A DNA stretch of 64,000 nucleotides, from positions 18,082 to 82,081 of the forward strand of contig CAZRWD010000009.1 of the NCBI GenBank assembly GCA_964603785.1, read 5' to 3'. The translations under genes were made by a program, and so were the position numbers. The number at the start of each line of letters is the position of its first letter. Positions within the stretch are counted from its first letter, which is position 1. This stretch comes from an uncultured bacterium. GTDB lineage: Bacteria > Fermentibacterota > Fermentibacteria > Fermentibacterales > Fermentibacteraceae. This document shows, one piece after another, positions 9,338 to 29,189 of the stretch. The notes under the pieces were generated by a model. The model was given only the letters and a program-made list of their open reading frames with translations. It ran no database searches and had not been told where the DNA came from.

Positions 9338-9705
9338 CACCCCTCCACTGAAACGTTCGAGCACTCGTCGGGGTCGATCCCGATCCTGACCGGACCGGCG
9401 GGCATCAGGGGCATCTCGATCCTCAGGACGCCGTCCCTCATCTCGGCCGTAGCTTCGGAAGCCTCGATCCTGGCCGGCAGATCGATCTCGCGCTCGAAGC
9501 GGCCCGTCCTGATCTCCAGCCTCTCGGCCGCGAGCCCGGGGAGTATGGGACCCCTGACGCCCCGCACGACGACCGATCTGCTCCTCGCGAAGACCTCCAC
9601 GTCCGGGGGCCGCATGCCGGGCAGCTCCACGAAGAGTATCAGGTGCGTCTGCGTCTCGTAGAGGTCCACGGCCGGGGACCAGTATCCGCCAAGGCTCTGC
9701 AGCAA
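9337..9705 (-). CDS. Hsp20/alpha-crystallin family small heat-shock protein
   Basis: Alpha-crystallin domain: VDLYETQTHLILFVELPGMRPPDVEV ... RSFRL-like REIDLP...GVLRIEMP. It lies immediately upstream of lon. Confidence 0.8.
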   Translation of the reverse strand: MLQSLGGYWSPAVDLYETQTHLILFVELPGMRPPDVEVFARSRSVVVRGVRGPILPGLAAERLEIRTGRFEREIDLPARIEASEATAEMRDGVLRIEMPLMPAGPVRIGIDPDECSNVSVEG

Positions 9706-9718
9706 TGTTCCTCCCGGC

Positions 9719-11956
9719 CTACTGGACGTCGAACCTGACCTGGACGGTCGTGGGCACTTCGACAGGCACCCCGCCCTGGGTGGCGGGCTGGAAGCGCCAC
9801 TGGCTGACGGCGTCCGCGGCGGCCTGGCCGCAGCCGAGCCCGAGCGGGTCGTTGACGACCCTGACGTCCGAGACCGAGCCGTCGGTCCGGACCGTGAGCT
9901 CGAGCGTCACGTATCCGTGGATGTCGCCTCTCTCGGCGGCCAGACCCGGAACCGTCGGCGCGACGGTGGAGATGGCGAACGGCGGGATGACCGGCTGTTC
10001 CTCGATGATGTCGGGCTGCTGCTGGACCTCGGCGGCCGTGTAGCGGATCATCGTGTCCTCGCCGAGGGTGATCGTGACCGTGCTCACCTGGTCTTCGTAG
10101 CCGGGGTTCGTGAGCCGCACGGAGTAGGTTCCCGGCTCGAGCTCGATCGGAGGGAGCGGGGTCTGTCCGTAGCTCTGGCCGTCGATGGTTACCTCGGCCC
10201 AGGGTTCCGGGCCGATCAGGAGCCGCCCTGTGGTGACGTTCCTCTCCGGGGTGACCGTGGCGCTGTACCCGTCGGGGCCGAGGGTTATCGACCTGGTCCA
10301 GTCCTCGTAGCCCTCGAGCCTCACGGTGAGGGTGTGGGTGCCCCTGTCGGCGATGTGGGTCAGCCTTCTGCCGGATCCGACGGATGTCCCGTCCACGAAG
10401 AAGCTGGCCGTGCCCTCGATGTCGCCGGCTAGGGTCAGCGAGATCTGGGATGTCTCCGAAGAGAGCAGCGCGAGGGGCTGCAGGAAGCTGCCCGGCGTGT
10501 CCACCAGCACCGTCTCGGGAAGCGAGTTGTAGCCTGTCAGAACGGCCTGGAAGACGTGCGTGCCGGTCGGCATCTCCGAGGAGAGGGAGGTGCCGGAAAC
10601 GCCGTCGACGAGGATGCTCACCGAGCCGGGCTGCGGGGTGGGCTCGCCGGCGGGCATCAGGATGTTGAACGTGACGTCGGCCGTGTTCGTCCCTAGCGGG
10701 GAGAGAACCAGAGTGTCCGTGACCTGCTGGCCCTGGGCCAGATCCAGCCTGGTCTGCAGCACCTCGTAGCCCTGCGCCCTGACCTCGATGCTCCTCTCGC
10801 CGAAATCGGTCCCGGTCAGCCTGTAGGCCCCCGTCGAGTCGCGCTCGATCTCCTGCCCGTCGACGGAGAGCAGGGCGTCATCTGCTCCCGCCAGGTACAG
10901 CGACACCGAATAGGGCTGCACCGGAGGCGCCTCGACGGGCTCCGGGGATCTACCGGAGAAGAGCTTGACGGCTCCGAAGGCGACGGCCGCCACGACCGCC
11001 GCCCCGACGAGGATGGGCACCAGGGGGAGCTTCCTGCGCTCCCTCTCCTCGCGCGCGGCGGGCTCTGCCGCCGCCGGGGCCGGCGCCGCCGCCGCGACCG
11101 GCACCGCCGCCGCGATCACGGGTTCGGGGGTTCTCTCCGCCGACCTGGAGACGGGGGCGGCCACCTTGCCCAGGCGCTCCGCCAGCCCGCGGATGGTCGG
11201 GTCGTCAGGGAACCTCTGCTGAGCCTCGCGAGCCTCCTGGAGGGCGAGGTCGAACTCGTTGCCGGCTATCAGCTCGCGGATCGCCGCTATCGCCCCGTCC
11301 ACACCGGCCGGGGTCTCCTCGACCTCGACAGGCTCCTCGGCCTCGAGAGTCCCGACACCATCTGCCGCAACGAACTCGTCCACCAGGTCCTCGTCGGAGA
11401 TCTCGCCGGCGGAGGAGGCATAGTCCTCCACCTCGGCCAGGAGCCTGTCGAGCGCGGGGGAGGTGGGCCAGAACTCGAATATCTTCCGGGCCTGCTCGAG
11501 GGCTCCGGCGGGATCCGACGCCCTCAGCCTGGTCAGCCCGAGGTCGGCCAGGTTGTTGGCCTTGATGCTTCGCTTGACCGACTTTATGCGCCGGTTGATG
11601 TCGACGTTCTCGTCATCCTGCCTGCGGGCCCTCTCGAGCTCCTGGAGGGCGCGGATCTCGTCTCCTGCCTCCAGGGCCTCGTCGGACCTCCTGACGCACT
11701 CCTCCACGAAGCCGGCCGCTGCGGGCGCCGCGGCCTCGGTCGGGCTGTGCGCCCTGATCGACCGTGTGCGCTTGAAAGCCTTCATCGCCGCTATCTCGCG
11801 CTCGATGGACTGGGCCTCTTCACGGACCTCGTCGTTGTCCGGCTCGAGATCCATGGCCTTGCGGAGCGTCCTCAGAGCCTGCTCGCGCTCGCCGGACTCC
11901 ATCTGCCTTCGTGCGGCTCGAAGCAGCTCAGTGACACGGCTTTCAGCAGCGCTCAT
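9719..11956 (-). CDS. Multidomain TonB-family protein: N-terminal TPR-like region, TM segment, PEGA domains, C-terminal TonB energy-transducer domain
   Basis: The C-terminus GYVTLELTVRTDGSVSDVRVVNDPLGLGCGQAAADAVSQWRFQPATQGG is a TonB_C signature. The PEGA-type motifs are TIDGQSYGQTPL...LEPGTYSVRLTNPGYED and VRLEGYEDW. The hydrophobic TM segment is LPLVPILVGAAVVAAVAFGAV. Confidence 0.7.
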   Translation of the reverse strand: MSAAESRVTELLRAARRQMESGEREQALRTLRKAMDLEPDNDEVREEAQSIEREIAAMKAFKRTRSIRAHSPTEAAAPAAAGFVEECVRRSDEALEAGDEIRALQELERARRQDDENVDINRRIKSVKRSIKANNLADLGLTRLRASDPAGALEQARKIFEFWPTSPALDRLLAEVEDYASSAGEISDEDLVDEFVAADGVGTLEAEEPVEVEETPAGVDGAIAAIRELIAGNEFDLALQEAREAQQRFPDDPTIRGLAERLGKVAAPVSRSAERTPEPVIAAAVPVAAAAPAPAAAEPAAREERERRKLPLVPILVGAAVVAAVAFGAVKLFSGRSPEPVEAPPVQPYSVSLYLAGADDALLSVDGQEIERDSTGAYRLTGTDFGERSIEVRAQGYEVLQTRLDLAQGQQVTDTLVLSPLGTNTADVTFNILMPAGEPTPQPGSVSILVDGVSGTSLSSEMPTGTHVFQAVLTGYNSLPETVLVDTPGSFLQPLALLSSETSQISLTLAGDIEGTASFFVDGTSVGSGRRLTHIADRGTHTLTVRLEGYEDWTRSITLGPDGYSATVTPERNVTTGRLLIGPEPWAEVTIDGQSYGQTPLPPIELEPGTYSVRLTNPGYEDQVSTVTITLGEDTMIRYTAAEVQQQPDIIEEQPVIPPFAISTVAPTVPGLAAERGDIHGYVTLELTVRTDGSVSDVRVVNDPLGLGCGQAAADAVSQWRFQPATQGGVPVEVPTTVQVRFDVQ

Positions 11957-22381: not shown

Positions 22382-24193
22382 TCAGACCCGGTCGGGAGGA
22401 CCGCCCGGGCGTCGTCCGGACATGTCCTCGCGGCCAGGCCGCGCGGGAGACACCATGCGTGAGTATAGCCCGCAGGATACGAGCAGTTCCATGTGGGTGC
22501 CGGAGGCCGCCACCGCCCCGCCGTCGATCAGGAGCACCCGGTCTGCGGCCTCGAGCACAGTCGGGTCGTGGCTGACCGCTATGCACATGAGGTCGGCCGA
22601 TATGGAGCGGACGGTGTCGAGGAGCGCGGAGGCCATCGAGTGCTCGAGCGACGAGGTGGGCTCGTCCAGGACGAGGAGGGCCGGCTCGCGCACGAGAGCC
22701 CTGGCGAGGGATACCCGCCGCCTCTGACCCTCGGACAGGAGCACGCCCCGCTCTCCCACGGGCGTATCGGCGCCCAGCGGCAGGGATGCCGTGAATCCCG
22801 CCGAGCCCGAGAGCTCCAGCGCCTTCTCGACAGCCTCGCGGGATGCGTCCGGGCTCCCCGCCAGCACGTTCTCGAGGACGGTGCCCGGCAGGAGGGAGAC
22901 GACCTGGGGGACATAGCCGATCCTCGCGCGGAGGGCGGATGTCCCGTACTCGTCGGCATCCCTGCCGTCGAAGAGGATCCTGCCCCCGGAGGGCCTGTAC
23001 AGCAGCAGCATCAGTCTGAGCAGCGTCGTCTTGCCGGCTCCGCTGGGTCCGGCCATCGCCAGCAGCCCGCCCTTCGAAGCCCTGAAGGAGAGGCCGTCGA
23101 ACAGGGGCGCCCTGCCGGGATACCCGAAGGAGACCCCTTCGAACTCGAGGGTCGAGAAGGCGGGCGCCTCCGTCCGCCCGCCGGGCACGGCCGGTTCCTC
23201 CGGCTCCACCTGCCAGATCTCGTCCAGGCGCTCGAGCGCGGCCGCGGCTCCCTGGAGATCGAGGGAGGACGAGGCGAGGAACCTGGCCGGGCTGAAGACG
23301 GCCGCCAGGTAGGCCTGGAAGGCGATCAGGGTACCGAGGCTCATCGACCCGTCGAGGACCATGCCCCCTCCGGCGAGGAGCACGCCGAGGTGGACGGCAC
23401 CCTGCACGAGTTCGAGGGAGACCGCCGCCAGCGAGCCCTGCCTGGTCCTCTCTATCCCTATCCCCAGGAGCCTGTCGAGCCTCCCTGTGAAGCCGCCGAG
23501 AACCCGCCCCTCCATGCCGTAGGCCTTGACCACCTCCGAGGCGGCGACTCCCGACACGAGGTGTCCGACCGCATCGGCGTTGCTCTCCATCGCCCGGGCG
23601 GCCAGACGTCTCATCCTCCCCGCGAAGAGCGACGCGACGAGGAAGAGGAGGGGTACGGACAGGGTCGCCGCGAGGGCCAGCCTCCACTCCAGGATCATTA
23701 TCAGGACGACGCTCCCCGCGAGGCGCAGGGCGGAGGAGACCATCCCGGGGACCGCGCCGGTGAACACCCATCTGAGCGTTCCGAGGTCCGAGGTGAAGCG
23801 GGTGGCCAGATAGCCCTCCCCGAAGCGGTCGTGGAAGGCCAGGGGGAGCCTCAGCGTCCTCTCGAGGAACCTCTCCTGGAGCTCCAGCCCGATCCTCCTG
23901 TCCAGCCTGGCGGAGGTCATCTGCTGTGCGTAGCCTGCAGCCGTTCCGGCCAGCCTGAGCCCCGCCAGCAGGGCGGCCCCGGCGAGGAGCCAGCCCCGGT
24001 CGCCACCGAGCAGGGCCCTGTCCACGAGCGATCGCGTGACGGCCGGGAGCGCCAGGGTCAGGGCGGTGCCCGCCGCGAGCAGCAGCAGGACGGCCAGCAG
24101 CCCTCTTCCGCCGCTCCTGAACACCGGGACCAGGACCTCCCTGGAGAAGGGCCTGCCGTACAGCGCCCGGAGCCCCGGAGTCCGCTCTCTCAT
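22382..24193 (-). CDS. ABC exporter, fused permease + ATP-binding domains (MsbA/bacteriocin-exporter type, no C39 peptidase domain)
   Basis: Six predicted TM helices, followed by Walker A GPSGAGKTT, signature LSEGQRRRVSLARAL and Walker B LLVLDEPTSSLE. Its ATG overlaps the kinase gene stop (ATGA). Confidence 0.85.
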   Translation of the reverse strand: MRERTPGLRALYGRPFSREVLVPVFRSGGRGLLAVLLLLAAGTALTLALPAVTRSLVDRALLGGDRGWLLAGAALLAGLRLAGTAAGYAQQMTSARLDRRIGLELQERFLERTLRLPLAFHDRFGEGYLATRFTSDLGTLRWVFTGAVPGMVSSALRLAGSVVLIMILEWRLALAATLSVPLLFLVASLFAGRMRRLAARAMESNADAVGHLVSGVAASEVVKAYGMEGRVLGGFTGRLDRLLGIGIERTRQGSLAAVSLELVQGAVHLGVLLAGGGMVLDGSMSLGTLIAFQAYLAAVFSPARFLASSSLDLQGAAAALERLDEIWQVEPEEPAVPGGRTEAPAFSTLEFEGVSFGYPGRAPLFDGLSFRASKGGLLAMAGPSGAGKTTLLRLMLLLYRPSGGRILFDGRDADEYGTSALRARIGYVPQVVSLLPGTVLENVLAGSPDASREAVEKALELSGSAGFTASLPLGADTPVGERGVLLSEGQRRRVSLARALVREPALLVLDEPTSSLEHSMASALLDTVRSISADLMCIAVSHDPTVLEAADRVLLIDGGAVAASGTHMELLVSCGLYSRMVSPARPGREDMSGRRPGGPPDRV

Positions 24194-25107
24194 CCTGCAT
24201 CCCCGAGGAGGCTCCTGACCGCGGACCAGTCCGGACCCTCCAGCGTCAGCCCAGCCGTGGCGCAGGGCACCGAGAGCGCCAGGCGCCTAGCGAGCCCGGC
24301 GGCCTCGATGGCCACCGCCGGGGGCAGGTCGTCGTGACGGCACCAGCATCCTTCGTGGAGCCTGCGGATCGCCTCGCCCGAATCGATCCTGCACAGCGAG
24401 AAGGCGTCGGCCTTCTCGAGGAAGAGGACGGCCCCGAGCGGCGCAGGCCCGCCATCCGGTTCGAGGAGGCTCCAGCCGGTCGGATGGACGAGCGGCCGGT
24501 CTCCCTCGATGCTCACGGCGTTGCAGTCGTCCGACAGGATGCGCCCTCCGTGGCCGGAGAGGACTGCGGTGGTCTTCCCCCCCTCGTCGGGGGCTACCAT
24601 CAGGACTCCCCTTCCGTCCAGGACGACGGCGGAGCTGTGGATCAGCAGGGTCGAGAAGAGCGGCGTGAAGGGCGAGACGATCCCCGGGTTGAGGGTGAGC
24701 ACCGTGTCCAGGTCTTCGGGCACCCTGTCGCCGTTGGTCAGGGCCAGGGAGGCTGCGCGGTCGAAATCCCACAGCGTCAGTGTGTCGGTCCTGCGGTCCG
24801 CGGTCAGCCCGAAGGCGCGGGACGGCTCGGGACCGAACTCCCCCGCCAGGATGCGGGCAGCCTCGCCGCAGCCCGGCCCTCCCGAGGCGACCGCACGGGA
24901 CAGCCTGTCGAACGCGGGGCCGGGGAGCCTGTCGAACACGATCCCCACGGATCCGCGCGGGGCCGATCCGTCGTCGCCGGCTCCCAGGTCCCGGAAGGCG
25001 TACCTGGTCCTTGTCCTGATCGTGATCTGGAAGCTGATGCCCGCAAAAGCGAAACGGAGGCCGCACGGGCCTCCGATCTCGATCCTGCGGTTCCGGGGAG
25101 CGGTCAA
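24190..25107 (-). CDS. HprK-related kinase (HPr kinase/phosphorylase C-terminal-domain-like P-loop protein)
   Basis: LIHSSAVVLDGRGVLMVAPDEGGKTTAVLSG matches the HprK C-terminal-domain pattern LH(A/S)SAV...G.G.L..G.SG.GKST. TTG start lies 7 nt after the precursor B stop. Confidence 0.6.
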   Translation of the reverse strand: MTAPRNRRIEIGGPCGLRFAFAGISFQITIRTRTRYAFRDLGAGDDGSAPRGSVGIVFDRLPGPAFDRLSRAVASGGPGCGEAARILAGEFGPEPSRAFGLTADRRTDTLTLWDFDRAASLALTNGDRVPEDLDTVLTLNPGIVSPFTPLFSTLLIHSSAVVLDGRGVLMVAPDEGGKTTAVLSGHGGRILSDDCNAVSIEGDRPLVHPTGWSLLEPDGGPAPLGAVLFLEKADAFSLCRIDSGEAIRRLHEGCWCRHDDLPPAVAIEAAGLARRLALSVPCATAGLTLEGPDWSAVRSLLGDAG

Positions 25108-25114
25108 GGCCGCT

Positions 25115-25330
25115 TCAGGCCATCGATCCGGTTCTGCAGCCGTAGGCGACCTGGGAGCCGAGAATGCACTCGATGGACCAGTCGGGAGCTATCCCCGTGG
25201 GGCGGCACTGGTTCTGTATGGGCTGGGAACCGGGGAGGCAGATGCCCCTGGATCCGTCGTCCGTTAATCCCCTGTCCCCCGAGAGGTCTATGGAGCCAGG
25301 CGCCTCGTAAAGCGATCTGTAGCCCGGCAT
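25115..25330 (-). CDS. Cys-rich precursor-like peptide B (71 aa), paralog of peptide A
   Basis: ATG with SD GGGGGTGA 2-3 nt upstream. Sequence: MPGYRSLYEAPGSIDLSGDRGLTDDGSRGICLPGSQPIQNQCRPTGIAPDWSIECILGSQVAYGCRTGSMA. Four Cys spaced 12/12/9, conserved with peptide A. GC3 bias is good. Confidence 0.6.
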   Translation of the reverse strand: MPGYRSLYEAPGSIDLSGDRGLTDDGSRGICLPGSQPIQNQCRPTGIAPDWSIECILGSQVAYGCRTGSMA

Positions 25331-25480: not shown

Positions 25481-25693
25481 TCAGACCATGGACCCCGCGT
25501 TGCACATGTAGGCCACCTGCCCGCCGACGTTGCAGCGGATCGGGATGTGCGGGGCGTGACCGACCGGCGAGCACTGGTTCTGGACCGGATGGGTCCCCGG
25601 ATTGCAGATGCCCGTCACACTTCCCCCCTGGAGACCGGGACCCCCGGACAGGTCCATGCAGCCGGGGGATTCGTAAAGCCTTCCCTCAGGCAT
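25481..25693 (-). CDS. Cys-rich precursor-like peptide A (70 aa)
   Basis: ATG start. Sequence: MPEGRLYESPGCMDLSGGPGLQGGSVTGICNPGTHPVQNQCSPVGHAPHIPIRCNVGGQVAYMCNAGSMV. It shares with peptide B the motifs LYExPG, DLSG, GICxPG, QNQC, QVAYxCxxGSM. It lies immediately downstream of the second rSAM gene. Confidence 0.65.
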   Translation of the reverse strand: MPEGRLYESPGCMDLSGGPGLQGGSVTGICNPGTHPVQNQCSPVGHAPHIPIRCNVGGQVAYMCNAGSMV

Positions 25694-26828
25694 CCCGCCC
25701 GCCTTCCATGCCTTGCGCCCTGAGCCTGGACGCGGGGAACAGACCGAGCGACTCGGCCATGCCGCAGAAGGCGTTGCCGGAGGATATGCTCCTGCCCGCC
25801 AGATAGTTCAGGGCCACGCAGTCACCCCTGCAGAAGTCCCTGTGGATGCAGCGCGAGCATGTCCCCCCGAGCCCGGACGGGATGGTCTCCCGTATCTCCC
25901 GCAGCACCGGCGCACTCCTCCAGACCTCCTCCAGCCCGTCGCTCCGGATGTCGCCGAAGACCAGGCCCGGAAGCGACACCCCCGCCCCGCATATCGAGAT
26001 CTCTCCCGTGTGGAGTATGCCGAGGACGGTGTGTATGTCGCAACGGGAGCAGCCCTGCCTGAAGAGGTAGCCGGGAGGGAGGAACGCGGGGGGCAGGTGC
26101 AGGATGATCCGGGGGCCGGGCTTCGAGGCCCGCTCCGCCAGCTCGGAGCCCGCCCGGAGGAGGTCGCGGGGCTCGAGGAGCTCCTCCCCGGGGACGTCGC
26201 CCCCCCTTCCGATCGGCTGGATGTGGTTGAACTTGACCGATCCGCAACCCAGGCGCTCCGCCATGTCGATCACGTCCGTGACCTCGCCCGCGTTGCCCTT
26301 GTGGAGAGTGCAGATGAGCTGCGGCCTGATGCCCCGCCCGACGAGCCTTCCGATCCCCTCCATTGCCCGCCCGAAGCAGCCCGGCACCCCCCTGAGGGCC
26401 TCGTGGGTCTCCGCCGTGGCGCCGTCGACGCTCACGGAGATCGACCTGAGCACGCCGCATCCGGCGAGCAGGTCTGCGGTGGATTCGGTGAGGAGGGTCC
26501 CGTTGGTCTCCACCACGAGCTGGATGCCGTGCTCCGCGACCATGTGCACTATCTCGCCGAACGCGGGGTTCAGAAGGGGTTCGCCGCCCGTCAGCTTGAC
26601 GCTTGCCAGGCCCAGGGGCACGGCCTGTTCGACGGCGCTCCGCGCGACTTCCGGAGACATGTGGAGCGACGGGCCGGGGGCGTCTCCCTGGACGGGGCTG
26701 ATCCAGCAGTGCCTGCAGGAGAGGTTGCATGCCCCGGAGACGTACATGTAGAGTGATGCCAGAGGAGGGACTCCGGCACAGGGTCCGGGGGGGGCGGCGG
26801 CTCCGCAGGCCGGCGGGTCACACGGCAT
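25686..26828 (-). CDS. Radical SAM/SPASM-domain protein 2 (peptide-modifying maturase-like)
   Basis: CNLSCRHC (CxxxCxxC) near the N-terminus. C-terminal SPASM cysteines CSRCDIH...ISICGAG...GGTCSRCIHRDFCRGDC. The start is ATG 26828 (strong SD GAGGGGGG) or ATG 26750; the 26 codons between them have weaker GC3 bias. Confidence 0.85.
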   Translation of the reverse strand: MPCDPPACGAAAPPGPCAGVPPLASLYMYVSGACNLSCRHCWISPVQGDAPGPSLHMSPEVARSAVEQAVPLGLASVKLTGGEPLLNPAFGEIVHMVAEHGIQLVVETNGTLLTESTADLLAGCGVLRSISVSVDGATAETHEALRGVPGCFGRAMEGIGRLVGRGIRPQLICTLHKGNAGEVTDVIDMAERLGCGSVKFNHIQPIGRGGDVPGEELLEPRDLLRAGSELAERASKPGPRIILHLPPAFLPPGYLFRQGCSRCDIHTVLGILHTGEISICGAGVSLPGLVFGDIRSDGLEEVWRSAPVLREIRETIPSGLGGTCSRCIHRDFCRGDCVALNYLAGRSISSGNAFCGMAESLGLFPASRLRAQGMEGGRDA

Positions 26829-27918
26829 CGGACACCCCCCTCGAAACGGCGAACCTCCTGTAGCAGTCGACCGGGACGACGGCGTTCATGTCGCCGGTCA
26901 TCTCCAGGGCGAGCCCGGGACAGCTCCCGGTGCACCATGCCGAATAGGCGCACCCGCCGCAGCCCGGCACCTCCTCCATCGGGATATCCGCCCTCGCCCT
27001 CAGCGCCTTCATCACGGGGTGGTCCAGCCAGACTCCGGCGAGCCCGTCGGTGGTGACGTTCCCCATCACCATCCCGTGCAGGATGTGGCAGGGGACGATG
27101 GAGCCGTCGTGCATGACGTCGATCCTGGACCATACGCAGCCGCATCCGGACAGGAACCCGCCGCGGTATCCCGAAGGGGGCGCTCCCGTCCGGGACGAGG
27201 CGGCGATCGAGTCGAAGAACCCCGTCCGGGCGGCGGGGCCGGCCTGGGCCTGTATCCGCCCGGGATACCTCGCCATGAGCTCCCTGAAGTCATCCATGGC
27301 CCTCCAGGACTCCTCGGGCGTGAGGACCCCCCCGGAGGGACCGCAGCCGGAGCCCATGCCGAAGGCCTCGTTGGTCCCGAAGGAGTCGAGGCCCAGGTCC
27401 TCCAGCAGGAACCTGGCGAGGTCCCCCAGGTGGTCGACGTTGTGCCTGCCGATGGTTGCCCGGACCGCCACGGGGAGCCCCGCGGCGCGGGCTCTCTCCA
27501 GACCCGCGACGGCGGCTTCGAACCCTCCAGGGCGGGAGCGCTCGTGGACTTCCGCGCAGTGCCCGTCGATGGAGATCTGCAGATAGTCCATCCTGGTCCT
27601 CCGCCTGCCTTCGGCCAGCCTGCCGGCCATCTCCTCCGTGAGGAGGGTGCCGTTGGAGAGTATGGAGTACCGGAGCCGGTTCTCCACCGCCCTGTCCACC
27701 AGGTCGACGAAGCCGGGCCGCAGCAGGGGCTCCCCGCCCGTGAACAGGACCCTCATGACACCCATCGAGCCGAGCTGGTCGATGAAGGAGAGCCAGTCCC
27801 GGTCGGGGAGGTCGGGCAGCAGGTTCATCTCGTTCGCATAGAAGCAGTAGCCGCACGAAAGGTTGCACCGGCCGGTGACGGCGATGCCCACGGTCCTGGG
27901 GGCTTCCGGCAGCTGCAC
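26818..27918 (-). CDS. Radical SAM/SPASM-domain protein 1 (peptide-modifying maturase-like)
   Basis: GIAVTGRCNLSCGYCFYANE (CxxxCxxC at residues 17-24, so there is no N-terminal RRE domain). SPASM cysteines CGCVWSRIDVMHDGSIVPCH and CGGCAYSAWCTGSC. GTG start lies 1 nt after the PqqD stop. Confidence 0.85.
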   Translation of the reverse strand: MQLPEAPRTVGIAVTGRCNLSCGYCFYANEMNLLPDLPDRDWLSFIDQLGSMGVMRVLFTGGEPLLRPGFVDLVDRAVENRLRYSILSNGTLLTEEMAGRLAEGRRRTRMDYLQISIDGHCAEVHERSRPGGFEAAVAGLERARAAGLPVAVRATIGRHNVDHLGDLARFLLEDLGLDSFGTNEAFGMGSGCGPSGGVLTPEESWRAMDDFRELMARYPGRIQAQAGPAARTGFFDSIAASSRTGAPPSGYRGGFLSGCGCVWSRIDVMHDGSIVPCHILHGMVMGNVTTDGLAGVWLDHPVMKALRARADIPMEEVPGCGGCAYSAWCTGSCPGLALEMTGDMNAVVPVDCYRRFAVSRGVSDAV

Positions 27919-27919
27919 T

Positions 27920-28228
27920 TCAGGCGGGCGGGATCCGGAGGACGAAGCCGGCCTTCTCCATGTCCTCGAGGAAGGAGGCCACGTCGTCCTCCACCCGCCC
28001 GGCCGGGGCTTCCTCGAAGGCCCCGGCCAGCGATGCTGCTATGTCGGAGACCGGCCGGACGCCGTCGAGGCCCGACCACACGAAGAGGCCGGTCGCATTG
28101 AGTATCCTCACCCTGTTGGCATCGGGATCGAACAGGAGCCCGCCCTCCCGGTCCTCCTCCCGGAGGGTCACGACCGGGTTGCGCGAGTAGACAGCTCTCC
28201 CCCGGGGGGTCGATTCATGCTCCGTCAT
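27920..28228 (-). CDS. Standalone PqqD-family peptide chaperone (RiPP recognition element)
   Basis: LLFDPDANRVRILNATGLFVWSGLDGVRPVSDIAASLAGAFEEAPAGRVEDDVASFLEDMEKAGFV is a classic PqqD fold signature. The preferred start is ATG at M8 of the table ORF, with SD GGAGGT upstream. Confidence 0.8.
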   Translation of the reverse strand: MTEHESTPRGRAVYSRNPVVTLREEDREGGLLFDPDANRVRILNATGLFVWSGLDGVRPVSDIAASLAGAFEEAPAGRVEDDVASFLEDMEKAGFVLRIPPA

Positions 28229-29189
28229 CCGGACCTCCGGTTTCCACAACGCATCCGACTGGCGCGGAGTTCCTGCGGCCGGTCCTCTCGATCGCGAGGA
28301 ACACGGCCCCGATCAGAACCGCGAACCACAGGGTGGCGAAGCGCATGAGCAGTGTGACCGCCGCCGCGCCGGCCCCGCCGAGCGGGCCCGACAGGATCCC
28401 GTCCATCGTCAGCTCGGTGAGCCCCAGTCCCCCCGGTATCATGGACACGGCCCCGGCGATGGTCCCCGCGGAATGAGCCAGCAGTGCGGTCCCCGCACCC
28501 GTCCCGAGGCCTATCGATCTCGCCGCGGCCGCTATGACCATCGCCTCGAGACCCCACGACAGGACCCCGAGCGGAACGGAGACGGCGAGGCTGGCGGGTC
28601 CGAGGAGATCGCCGCAGGTATCCCTGAACGAGCACAGGGAATCGCTCCTCCCCCTGAGCGGGCGGATGCGGCAGGCGAGGCCGGCGAGCGCGCCGAAGAT
28701 CCTCCTCGAGGAGAGAACGGCCACGGAGGCGGCCGTCACGAGAGCGCCGGCGGCTATCACGGGCGCCACCGCGGCGCCTCCGGCGAGGGCGGCTCCCGCG
28801 GCCGCGAGCACCGTCATGCTCATGAGGTCGGTGATCCGCTCCGCAACGACGACGGGAGATGTCCGCGAGACGGGGATGCCCTCCCTGTCGCGGAGGAGGC
28901 AGGACTTCAGGAGCTCGCCGAACTTGCCCGGAGAGACGGTCATCGAGAAGCCGGCCAGGAACACCTGCAGGCTCCGTCCGAATCCGGGTCTGATCCCGGC
29001 GCGCCCGAGGAAGTAGTGCCATTTCAGGAACCTGAGGAAGTAGTTCGCCAGGGGCAGGCCGAGGATCGCGGGCAGCCACCGGGGGTCGAACGATTCGAGG
29101 GCCGCGCCTGTGCCGCGCATGTCGCCCGCCAGGACCAGGACCGAGTAGACGACGATCGCCAGGGCCGCGGTCAGGAGCAGCTTCTTCAA
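28218..29189 (-). CDS. UPF0104 / lysylphosphatidylglycerol-synthase-TM-like ('flippase-like') integral membrane protein
   Basis: C-terminal 324 aa of table ORF 28215..30152 (the upstream part is antisense to the TPR gene). Motifs DPRWLPAILGLPLANYFLRFLKWHYFL...GKFGE, with multiple TM helices. The putative TTG start overlaps the upstream TGA (TTGA). Confidence 0.65.

Follow-up and report, generated by a model that had tools for sequence, protein, structure and literature searches.

A divergent ScmC protein with an HprK/PEPCK-type P-loop, paired with cysteine-repeat precursor peptides in an uncultured Fermentibacteraceae bacterium

A 64,000-nucleotide stretch of DNA from an uncultured bacterium of the Fermentibacteraceae (NCBI GenBank assembly GCA_964603785.1, contig CAZRWD010000009.1, positions 18,082 to 82,081 of the forward strand; the whole stretch is called the window below) carries at 24190–25107 a gene for a P-loop protein, next to the genes for two short cysteine-repeat peptides, A1 and A2. 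Judged by its context and its network of homologs, this protein is a divergent ScmC, a member of the SynChlorMet (SCM) cassette. What we observe is a fold, a set of conserved catalytic residues, a family placement, an operon structure and a tight pairing of precursor and ScmC, which across related loci is the tightest and most general pairing in the cassette. Homology, a structure model and analogy with characterised peptide kinases would together suggest that ScmC uses ATP to phosphorylate the ScmA peptides encoded beside it, a proposal to which we give about an even chance of being right.

Family Placement and Fold of the Window ScmC

An HPr-kinase-like P-loop in this protein was the starting point of the original prediction, and the motif is indeed there: the minus-strand translation of 24526–24645 is LIHSSAVVLDGRGVLMVAPDEGGKTTAVLSGHGGRILSDD. 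The open reading frame (25107–24190) has the same ends in an independent public gene call. Its reported position directly downstream of the two precursors also holds, as it starts 8 nt beyond the A2 stop codon (25117–25115). At its other end, the TGA stop shares an ATGA overlap with the ATG of an ABC exporter gene. Every operon gene is read from the minus strand and either overlaps its neighbor or abuts it, and the ATGA overlap is consistent with translational coupling of ScmC and the exporter inside an operon for a ribosomally made and post-translationally modified peptide (RiPP).

The sole direct model match of the window protein was to HprK_rel_A (E 8.4e-4, 18.5 bits where the cutoff is 200). 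The match covers residues 153–201 only, and the comparison with this model, proposed earlier as a check, did not bring the protein into that family. The PEPCK_ATP and Hpr_kinase_N Pfam models were unmatched by the window protein, and a PDB sequence search with it gave no match. Its precomputed Pfam label is PF27840 "ScmC", at a weak score. A word-indexed homolog search with the single sequence as query returned nothing useful, and the family was reached only by an exhaustive phmmer search across 1.84 billion cluster representatives, which yielded 483 relatives of the window protein at E<=1e-3, including 94 at E<=1e-10. Among 72 aligned homologs (~25% identity), H157, G177, K178, T180 and D193 do not vary, and at least 90% keep G176 and D194. 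Hence, the Walker and phosphotransfer residues, whose loss had been named as the result that would undo the kinase idea, survive careful alignment (H157, K178, T180 and D193), and the HprK-like motif is no chance match. TIGR04249, the ScmC model, is matched by 25 of the 72 homologs (best E 8.9e-13), HprK_rel_A by ten and HprK_rel_B by one. Some ScmC homologs, of ~415 aa (P0151, P0155, P0033 and P0046), carry the family-specific N-terminal domain twice in tandem.

The family profile matches ATP-dependent phosphoenolpyruvate carboxykinase (PEPCK) in the block HCSA..GLSGTGKTT..GDD, with the catalytic residues of the window protein aligned to PEPCK His232, Lys254 and Asp268–269. A confident AlphaFold2 model (pLDDT 87.8, pTM 0.87), built on the homolog alignment, was compared with known structures by Foldseek. 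It matched ATP-PEPCK over both domains at E ~1e-6 (1ayl, 9e-7), with a TM score of 0.43–0.50 on the query, and matched HPr kinase/phosphorylase (HprK/P) at E values from 7e-5 (1knx) to 1e-3, with a TM score of ~0.45–0.50 on the target for 1jb1 and 1kkl. A model of the N-terminal domain on its own, made with the question of whether this domain resembles a RiPP recognition element (RRE), reached a pLDDT of 46 and was not used.

A bridging homolog, P0180, ties the family to HprK/P at the level of single residues. It matches the window protein by BLASTP (E 2e-10) and by hhalign (98%, across the C-terminal domain), and it also matches HprK/P crystal sequences directly (1ko7, E 5.6e-5), with LHASAV..GPRGAGKST..MEDD aligned to LHGVLV..GDSGIGKSE..VADD. 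Through this chain, H157, K178, T179 and D193–D194 equate to the catalytic His, the P-loop Lys-Ser and the Asp-Asp of HprK/P. Homology and model agree in placing the window protein, as a predicted two-domain member with its phosphotransfer residues retained, in the HprK/PEPCK P-loop superfamily. Of the likeness to HprK that had been claimed, the superfamily P-loop and the phosphotransfer residues stand. The Pfam model Hpr_kinase_C is not matched.

Precursor–ScmC Pairing in Related Loci

GTDB species genomes were scanned with a 12-sequence alignment, anchored on ScmC. The scan yielded 30 loci, whose sources include Chloroflexota, Aminicenantes and Acidobacteriota. The ScmC homolog lies directly 3' of a precursor with a YxxP leader and CxxG repeats in 28 of them, and the remaining two are cut by contig ends. 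About ten of these genome loci have the gene order ScmD-ScmE-ScmF-precursor-ScmC, as do 39 of the 51 metagenome loci described below. At least eight related loci have the precursor–ScmC pair and no ScmD, ScmE or ScmF within 7.5–10 kb; seven of these (L007, L013, L015, L019, L022, L028 and L035) have flanks of 7.5–8 kb on both sides, and one (L016) has shorter flanks. Two precursors of differing sequence occur together with two ScmC genes in L006 and L036. A second sample was anchored on ScmF and is thus independent of ScmC (at least 530 metagenome relatives, 80 loci kept). For the 51 ScmF-anchored loci with enough downstream sequence, ScmC was found within 3 kb on the same strand in 39, elsewhere in the locus in nine, and was absent from three. 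The tightness of the precursor–ScmC pairing argues that the peptide is ScmC's partner.

In 16 of the 30 ScmC-anchored loci (Table 1), ScmC is directly followed by a gene for an S26 (signal-peptidase-I-like) protein with a C-terminal extension of ~100 aa. By analogy with LPP clusters (see below), this gene likely encodes the leader peptidase.

Other neighbors and variants were noted in related loci. Pairs without radical-SAM genes adjoin genes for a TonB C-terminal-domain protein and ExbB in L013, L016 and L019 (also L014, L017 and L028), all from Aminicenantes and Acidobacteriota genomes; such neighbors may be a hint of an uptake-linked role of the cysteine-rich peptide, for example as a metallophore. 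In one variant locus (L037:2418–3564), a PqqD gene, just one radical-SAM/SPASM gene and the gene for a 65-aa precursor are followed by ScmC; the precursor there has a YEPPRIV leader and ends in Ser (...CPLGPIQS). At L035:9252–9941, a clear 96-aa ScmA-like precursor (9609–9899, plus strand) lies beneath a publicly called gene of 229 aa that runs on the other strand, so in GC-rich genomes spurious gene calls can mask ScmA-type precursors.

The Precursor Peptides and Their Tail Serine

Both window precursors are called genes in public assemblies. A1 ends in CNAGSMV and A2 in CRTGSMA, and the Ser at −3 that had been noted in both peptides (...AGSMV and ...TGSMA) is Ser68 in A1 and Ser69 in A2. A1 and A2 themselves have no direct match in NCBIfam or Pfam; TIGR04252, the ScmA model, is matched by one member of the precursor family (E 1e-3). 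In the leader, Y..P is invariant and mostly takes the form YExPxAxDLSG, with a GQ after it; YxxP is the lasso-type RRE-binding leader motif (PMC13381572). The core has four to seven Cys about 11 residues apart, with Gly at +3 in 87% and one of Pro, Ala and Val at +6 in 70%. Only the Tyr, the Pro, the Cys and the Gly are invariant. A1 and A2 have four CxxG repeats (spacing 11, 13 and 10) where most relatives have five, the first repeat being the one missing in the alignment. Longer ScmA-like precursors (~110–140 aa, one with 15 Cys) have the same leader and denser, irregular Cys patterns (Table 1).

Among 30 close relatives, the position four residues past the last Cys is Ser in 18 and Thr in three, compared with 24 Ser and 12 Thr at the same position of their other repeats (n = 120). 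The tail Ser is enriched and is no family constant. This bears on the original prediction of a conserved Ser near the C-terminus, which holds to the extent that the residue is enriched and recurs in haloarchaeal tails (below), but not as a universal feature. The Ser of the leader DLS and the residues after GQ were considered as alternative sites, and neither is universal.

Haloarchaeal Lasso Loci with ScmC-Family Genes

P0180 and its relatives are haloarchaeal proteins with PF27840, with or without PF07475, and carry the UniRef name Hpr(Ser) kinase. For some haloarchaeal ScmC-family proteins the NCBI name is "phosphoenolpyruvate carboxykinase (ATP)", apparently a misannotation. Three of the haloarchaeal loci (L119–L121) are complete lasso clusters, with a PqqD protein, a B2 protease, an Asn-synthase-like cyclase and an ABC transporter; a fourth (L034), on a shorter contig, shows the cyclase and the transporter only. 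These four loci have one to three ScmC-family genes, and every such gene has a YxxP-leader precursor of its own beside it.

Eight of the nine haloarchaeal precursors end in [T/V]-G-S-[V/I/T] plus one to four more residues (PLVGSVQ, PLVGSVVDA, PLVGSISPAS, EIVGSTSPYP, SLTGSIFG, GLTGSVFS, PLTGSVN and GLTGSVF). A G-S-hydrophobic tail with the Ser at −3 to −6 is thus common to the haloarchaeal peptides, the window peptides (AGSMV and TGSMA) and relatives of the latter (AGSVPSPS, VGSVPN and AGSIVL). Because the haloarchaeal peptides are mutually related, this likeness amounts to roughly one independent observation. The tail shared by haloarchaeal lasso precursors and ScmA-type precursors is suggestive, and is no proof. 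A literature search for haloarchaeal lasso kinases returned nothing relevant.

Proposed Function and Alternatives

We infer the kinase activity, the peptide as its substrate, the site and the order of the steps. In the scheme that we propose, presentation of the YxxP leader would fall to the PqqD-like ScmD, and modification of the CxxG cysteine repeats to ScmE and ScmF. ScmC would bind the ScmA-type precursors whose genes lie just upstream of its own, while these are linear and still have their leaders, and would use ATP to phosphorylate a peptide hydroxyl, the lead candidate being the Ser in the G-S-M-x tail. The MsbA-like pump would export the product. That Ser68 of A1 and Ser69 of A2 are the phosphorylation sites is a tentative assignment, which we think rather more apt to fail than to hold. 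A broader reading unites the PF27840 proteins in one class of peptide kinases, encoded next to precursors, that would recognise a G-S-hydrophobic tail near the C-terminus; the kinase, and not the radical-SAM pair, would then be the class-defining maturase in ScmA systems. We consider this generalization doubtful, and a shade less probable than the assignment of the site.

Several results weigh against a peptide kinase. The window protein matched neither TIGR04249 nor anything in the local Pfam copy, Hpr_kinase_C included, even at E<=10, and it falls below every curated cutoff. Its N-terminal domain has no detectable homology to the N-terminal domain of the haloarchaeal kinases. A universal Ser/Thr acceptor was sought across the precursor family, and none was found. 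Some tails are without any Ser or Thr (for example, CLNGGVPN and CGAGNVPM), and in the broader ScmF-anchored set the frequency of Ser at the tail position falls from 18/30 to 16/43 (Thr, 2/43). A literature search for SynChlorMet, ScmE/ScmF and the TIGR accessions returned no relevant paper on any SCM protein.

The lack of a universal Ser/Thr would also suit a ScmC that is no peptide kinase at all, being instead an ATP-binding scaffold, a leader-binding chaperone (possibly an RRE substitute) or a kinase of a non-peptide target. Some precursor–ScmC pairs have no PqqD gene nearby, and in those loci something must bind the YxxP leader; the N-terminal domain, family-specific and duplicated in the ~415-aa homologs, adds to the case, as does the finding that the best structural and profile matches are to PEPCK, a small-molecule phosphorylator. 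In a pure scaffold, however, a full catalytic residue set would not be expected at ~25% identity. A non-peptide target fits poorly with strict precursor adjacency and one ScmC per precursor, both of which point to a peptide partner, and no metabolic genes are conserved nearby. We judge a ScmC that is no peptide kinase to be unlikely.

It is also conceivable that ScmC phosphorylates the peptide merely as an activation step, the phosphate being eliminated or displaced toward a cysteine crosslink so that the final product is phosphate-free. Class III/IV lanthipeptide synthetases are an established case of phosphorylation followed by elimination. The precursor cores abound in Cys (median 5) as well as in Ser/Thr (median 12), and the pairs that exist without radical-SAM enzymes imply that ScmC alone may be the core maturase in those loci. 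Against this, no lyase-like gene is conserved beside ScmC, and a test of whether every CxxG repeat requires a hydroxyl residue showed no enrichment of Ser/Thr per repeat (0.828 observed versus 0.81 in column shuffles). The HprK-like RiPP kinases that have been characterised leave stable phosphates. Transient phosphorylation therefore seems improbable to us.

The original prediction compared the window protein to the kinases of paeninodin-type lasso peptides. HprK homologs do act as RiPP tailoring kinases (PMC8498205, PMC13381572), so that part of the comparison stands; membership of the window protein in the lasso group does not. The lasso kinases (PadeK, ThcoK and SyanK) phosphorylate the linear precursor, ahead of other maturation steps, and require Ser as its last residue (PMC8498205). 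On a strict lasso-type reading, ScmC would be an HprK_rel_A-like kinase acting on the C-terminal residue of the precursor. It has in its favor the weak HprK_rel_A match, the ten of 72 homologs that match the same model, the lasso-like YxxP leader motif and the discrete PqqD RRE. But the HprK_rel_A score is less than a tenth of its cutoff (18.5 versus 200 bits), and the last residue is Val in A1 and Ala in A2, with Ser only at −3; a C-terminal Ser of the lasso kind is present in neither peptide and in just two of 43 family precursors. Neither a lasso cyclase (Asn synthase-like) nor a B2 protease is found among the operon proteins by NCBIfam, Pfam or public annotation. A lasso-type kinase of this strict kind is very unlikely.

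That the gene encodes a housekeeping HprK/P or PEPCK and is a chance neighbor of the operon can for practical purposes be set aside: it has the shared superfamily and the PEPCK (ATP) name of some family members to recommend it, but no Pfam Hpr_kinase_C, Hpr_kinase_N or PEPCK_ATP match, a length of 305 aa against the ~540 aa of PEPCK, a stop codon that overlaps the exporter start, and a synteny with precursors that holds across phyla.

The Operon and Its Relation to Known Systems

ScmD, ScmE and ScmF are the best-scoring families for their respective window proteins (Table 1), and by these matches the operon is assigned as a divergent example of the SCM cassette as defined by TIGRFAMs, divergent because all members fall below the equivalog cutoffs. 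This identity was missed in the original prediction, which saw an unusual combination of peptide modifications; this set of genes already stands in the family catalogues, where ScmC is the member yet to be characterised. The window operon shares with the catalogued cassette the ScmA precursor, the PqqD-like ScmD, the two radical-SAM/SPASM enzymes ScmE and ScmF, and the position of ScmC after the precursor. It differs in having two precursors, in their four rather than five CxxG repeats, and in lacking an S26 peptidase; an S26-like sequence was looked for across the whole window and none was found.

Table 1. Features of the window operon (coordinates in the window) and sets of related loci
Feature	Location	Strand	Details and basis
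ScmC-family HprK/PEPCK-fold P-loop protein (predicted)	24190..25107	-	305 aa, TTG start
Catalytic core	24526..24645	-	His157, P-loop A-P-D-E-G-G-K178-T-T, Asp193-Asp194; translation and invariance in 72 homologs
ScmD-like PqqD-family RRE	27920..28249	-	109 aa; TIGR04248 ScmD (E 8.8e-14, 51.5 bits, cutoff 100); Pfam PqqD (E 3.8e-14)
ScmE-like radical SAM/SPASM enzyme	26818..27918	-	366 aa; TIGR04250 (E 1.6e-90, 303.6 bits, cutoff 400); Pfam Radical_SAM, SPASM
ScmF-like radical SAM/SPASM enzyme	25686..26828	-	380 aa; TIGR04251 (E 1.9e-99, 333.4 bits, cutoff 400); Pfam Radical_SAM, SPASM
Precursor A1, divergent ScmA	25481..25693	-	70 aa; Y7..P10 and DLSG leader, four CxxG repeats
Precursor A2, A1 paralog	25115..25330	-	71 aa from ATG at 25330; ends CRTGSMA (Ser69)
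MsbA-like ABC exporter without peptidase domain	22382..24193	-	603 aa; TIGR02204 (E 5.6e-94); Pfam ABC_membrane, ABC_tran
S26-bearing loci	L001, L002, L003, L005, L006, L008-L012, L018, L020, L021, L023, L027, L029		S26 gene directly after ScmC
ScmF-anchored metagenome loci with longer precursors	L065, L066, L067, L072, L083, L085, L092, L094, L103		

Next to the cassette, a gene for an LPG_synthase_TM (flippase-like) membrane protein (28215–29189, minus strand) overlaps the ScmD start and is therefore probably co-transcribed; it occurs in no related locus. More generally, the window genes that flank the cassette (LPG_synthase_TM and TPR proteins) are not kept in related loci, and so were not counted as part of the system.

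The closest characterised analogues of ScmC are the HprK-like kinases of linear polyphosphorylated peptides (LPP) and of lasso peptides. ScmC is neither HprK/P proper nor a lasso-kinase equivalog, since the defining features of these were tested and are lacking in it. The kinase of the LPP system, LppK, adds several phosphates to Ser3 of the LPP core, and LPP clusters have a discrete RRE, a signal-peptidase-I-like protease and an MsbA-like exporter (PMC13381572, Nat Commun 2026). LPP and SCM are thus both non-lasso RiPP systems in which an HprK-superfamily protein occurs together with a YxxP-type leader, a discrete RRE and an MsbA-like exporter; the signal-peptidase-I-like protease is found in SCM-related loci too, though not in the window operon. 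As judged from the description of LppK, on which alone this comparison is based, its site is an internal Ser and not the last residue, and it lies beside the leader cleavage site. LPP differs from SCM in coming from Bacillota, in having an NTP transferase and no radical-SAM enzyme, and in having cores without cysteine repeats; no NTP transferase is seen among the window operon proteins by NCBIfam, Pfam or public annotation. SCM-type loci can be described as the LPP toolkit plus one or two radical-SAM/SPASM enzymes.

With HprK/P (1ko7, 1jb1, 1kkl and 1knx), ScmC shares the fold of the C-terminal P-loop domain and the His, G-K-[S/T] and D-D motifs; it differs in giving no direct sequence match, in its N-terminal domain and in a genomic context unlinked to HPr or carbon catabolite control. 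ATP-PEPCK gives the best profile and structure matches, which extend across both domains, and its P-loop block aligns residue by residue; ScmC, however, is about half its size, lacks a PEPCK_ATP match and sits in a peptide-maturation operon.

Implications

The SCM cassette is already on record, and ScmC is modelled in both NCBIfam and Pfam. The function of ScmC, its residue-level link to HprK/P, the precursor–ScmC pairs without radical-SAM genes and the shared G-S-hydrophobic tail are not in the literature that we searched. The cassette is widespread in uncultured anaerobes (at least 530 metagenome relatives of ScmF and 483 cluster representatives of ScmC), and the pairing of precursor and ScmC provides a simple rule for genome mining.

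If ScmC were shown to be a peptide kinase, a chemistry would be assigned to a whole catalogued family, and HprK-like RiPP kinases would extend beyond lasso and LPP peptides. The predicted product would then combine radical-SAM-modified cysteine repeats with a phosphate. Should the PF27840 proteins prove to be a single kinase class, the tail would be common to two otherwise unrelated classes of RiPPs, the lasso peptides of haloarchaea and the ScmA peptides of bacteria.

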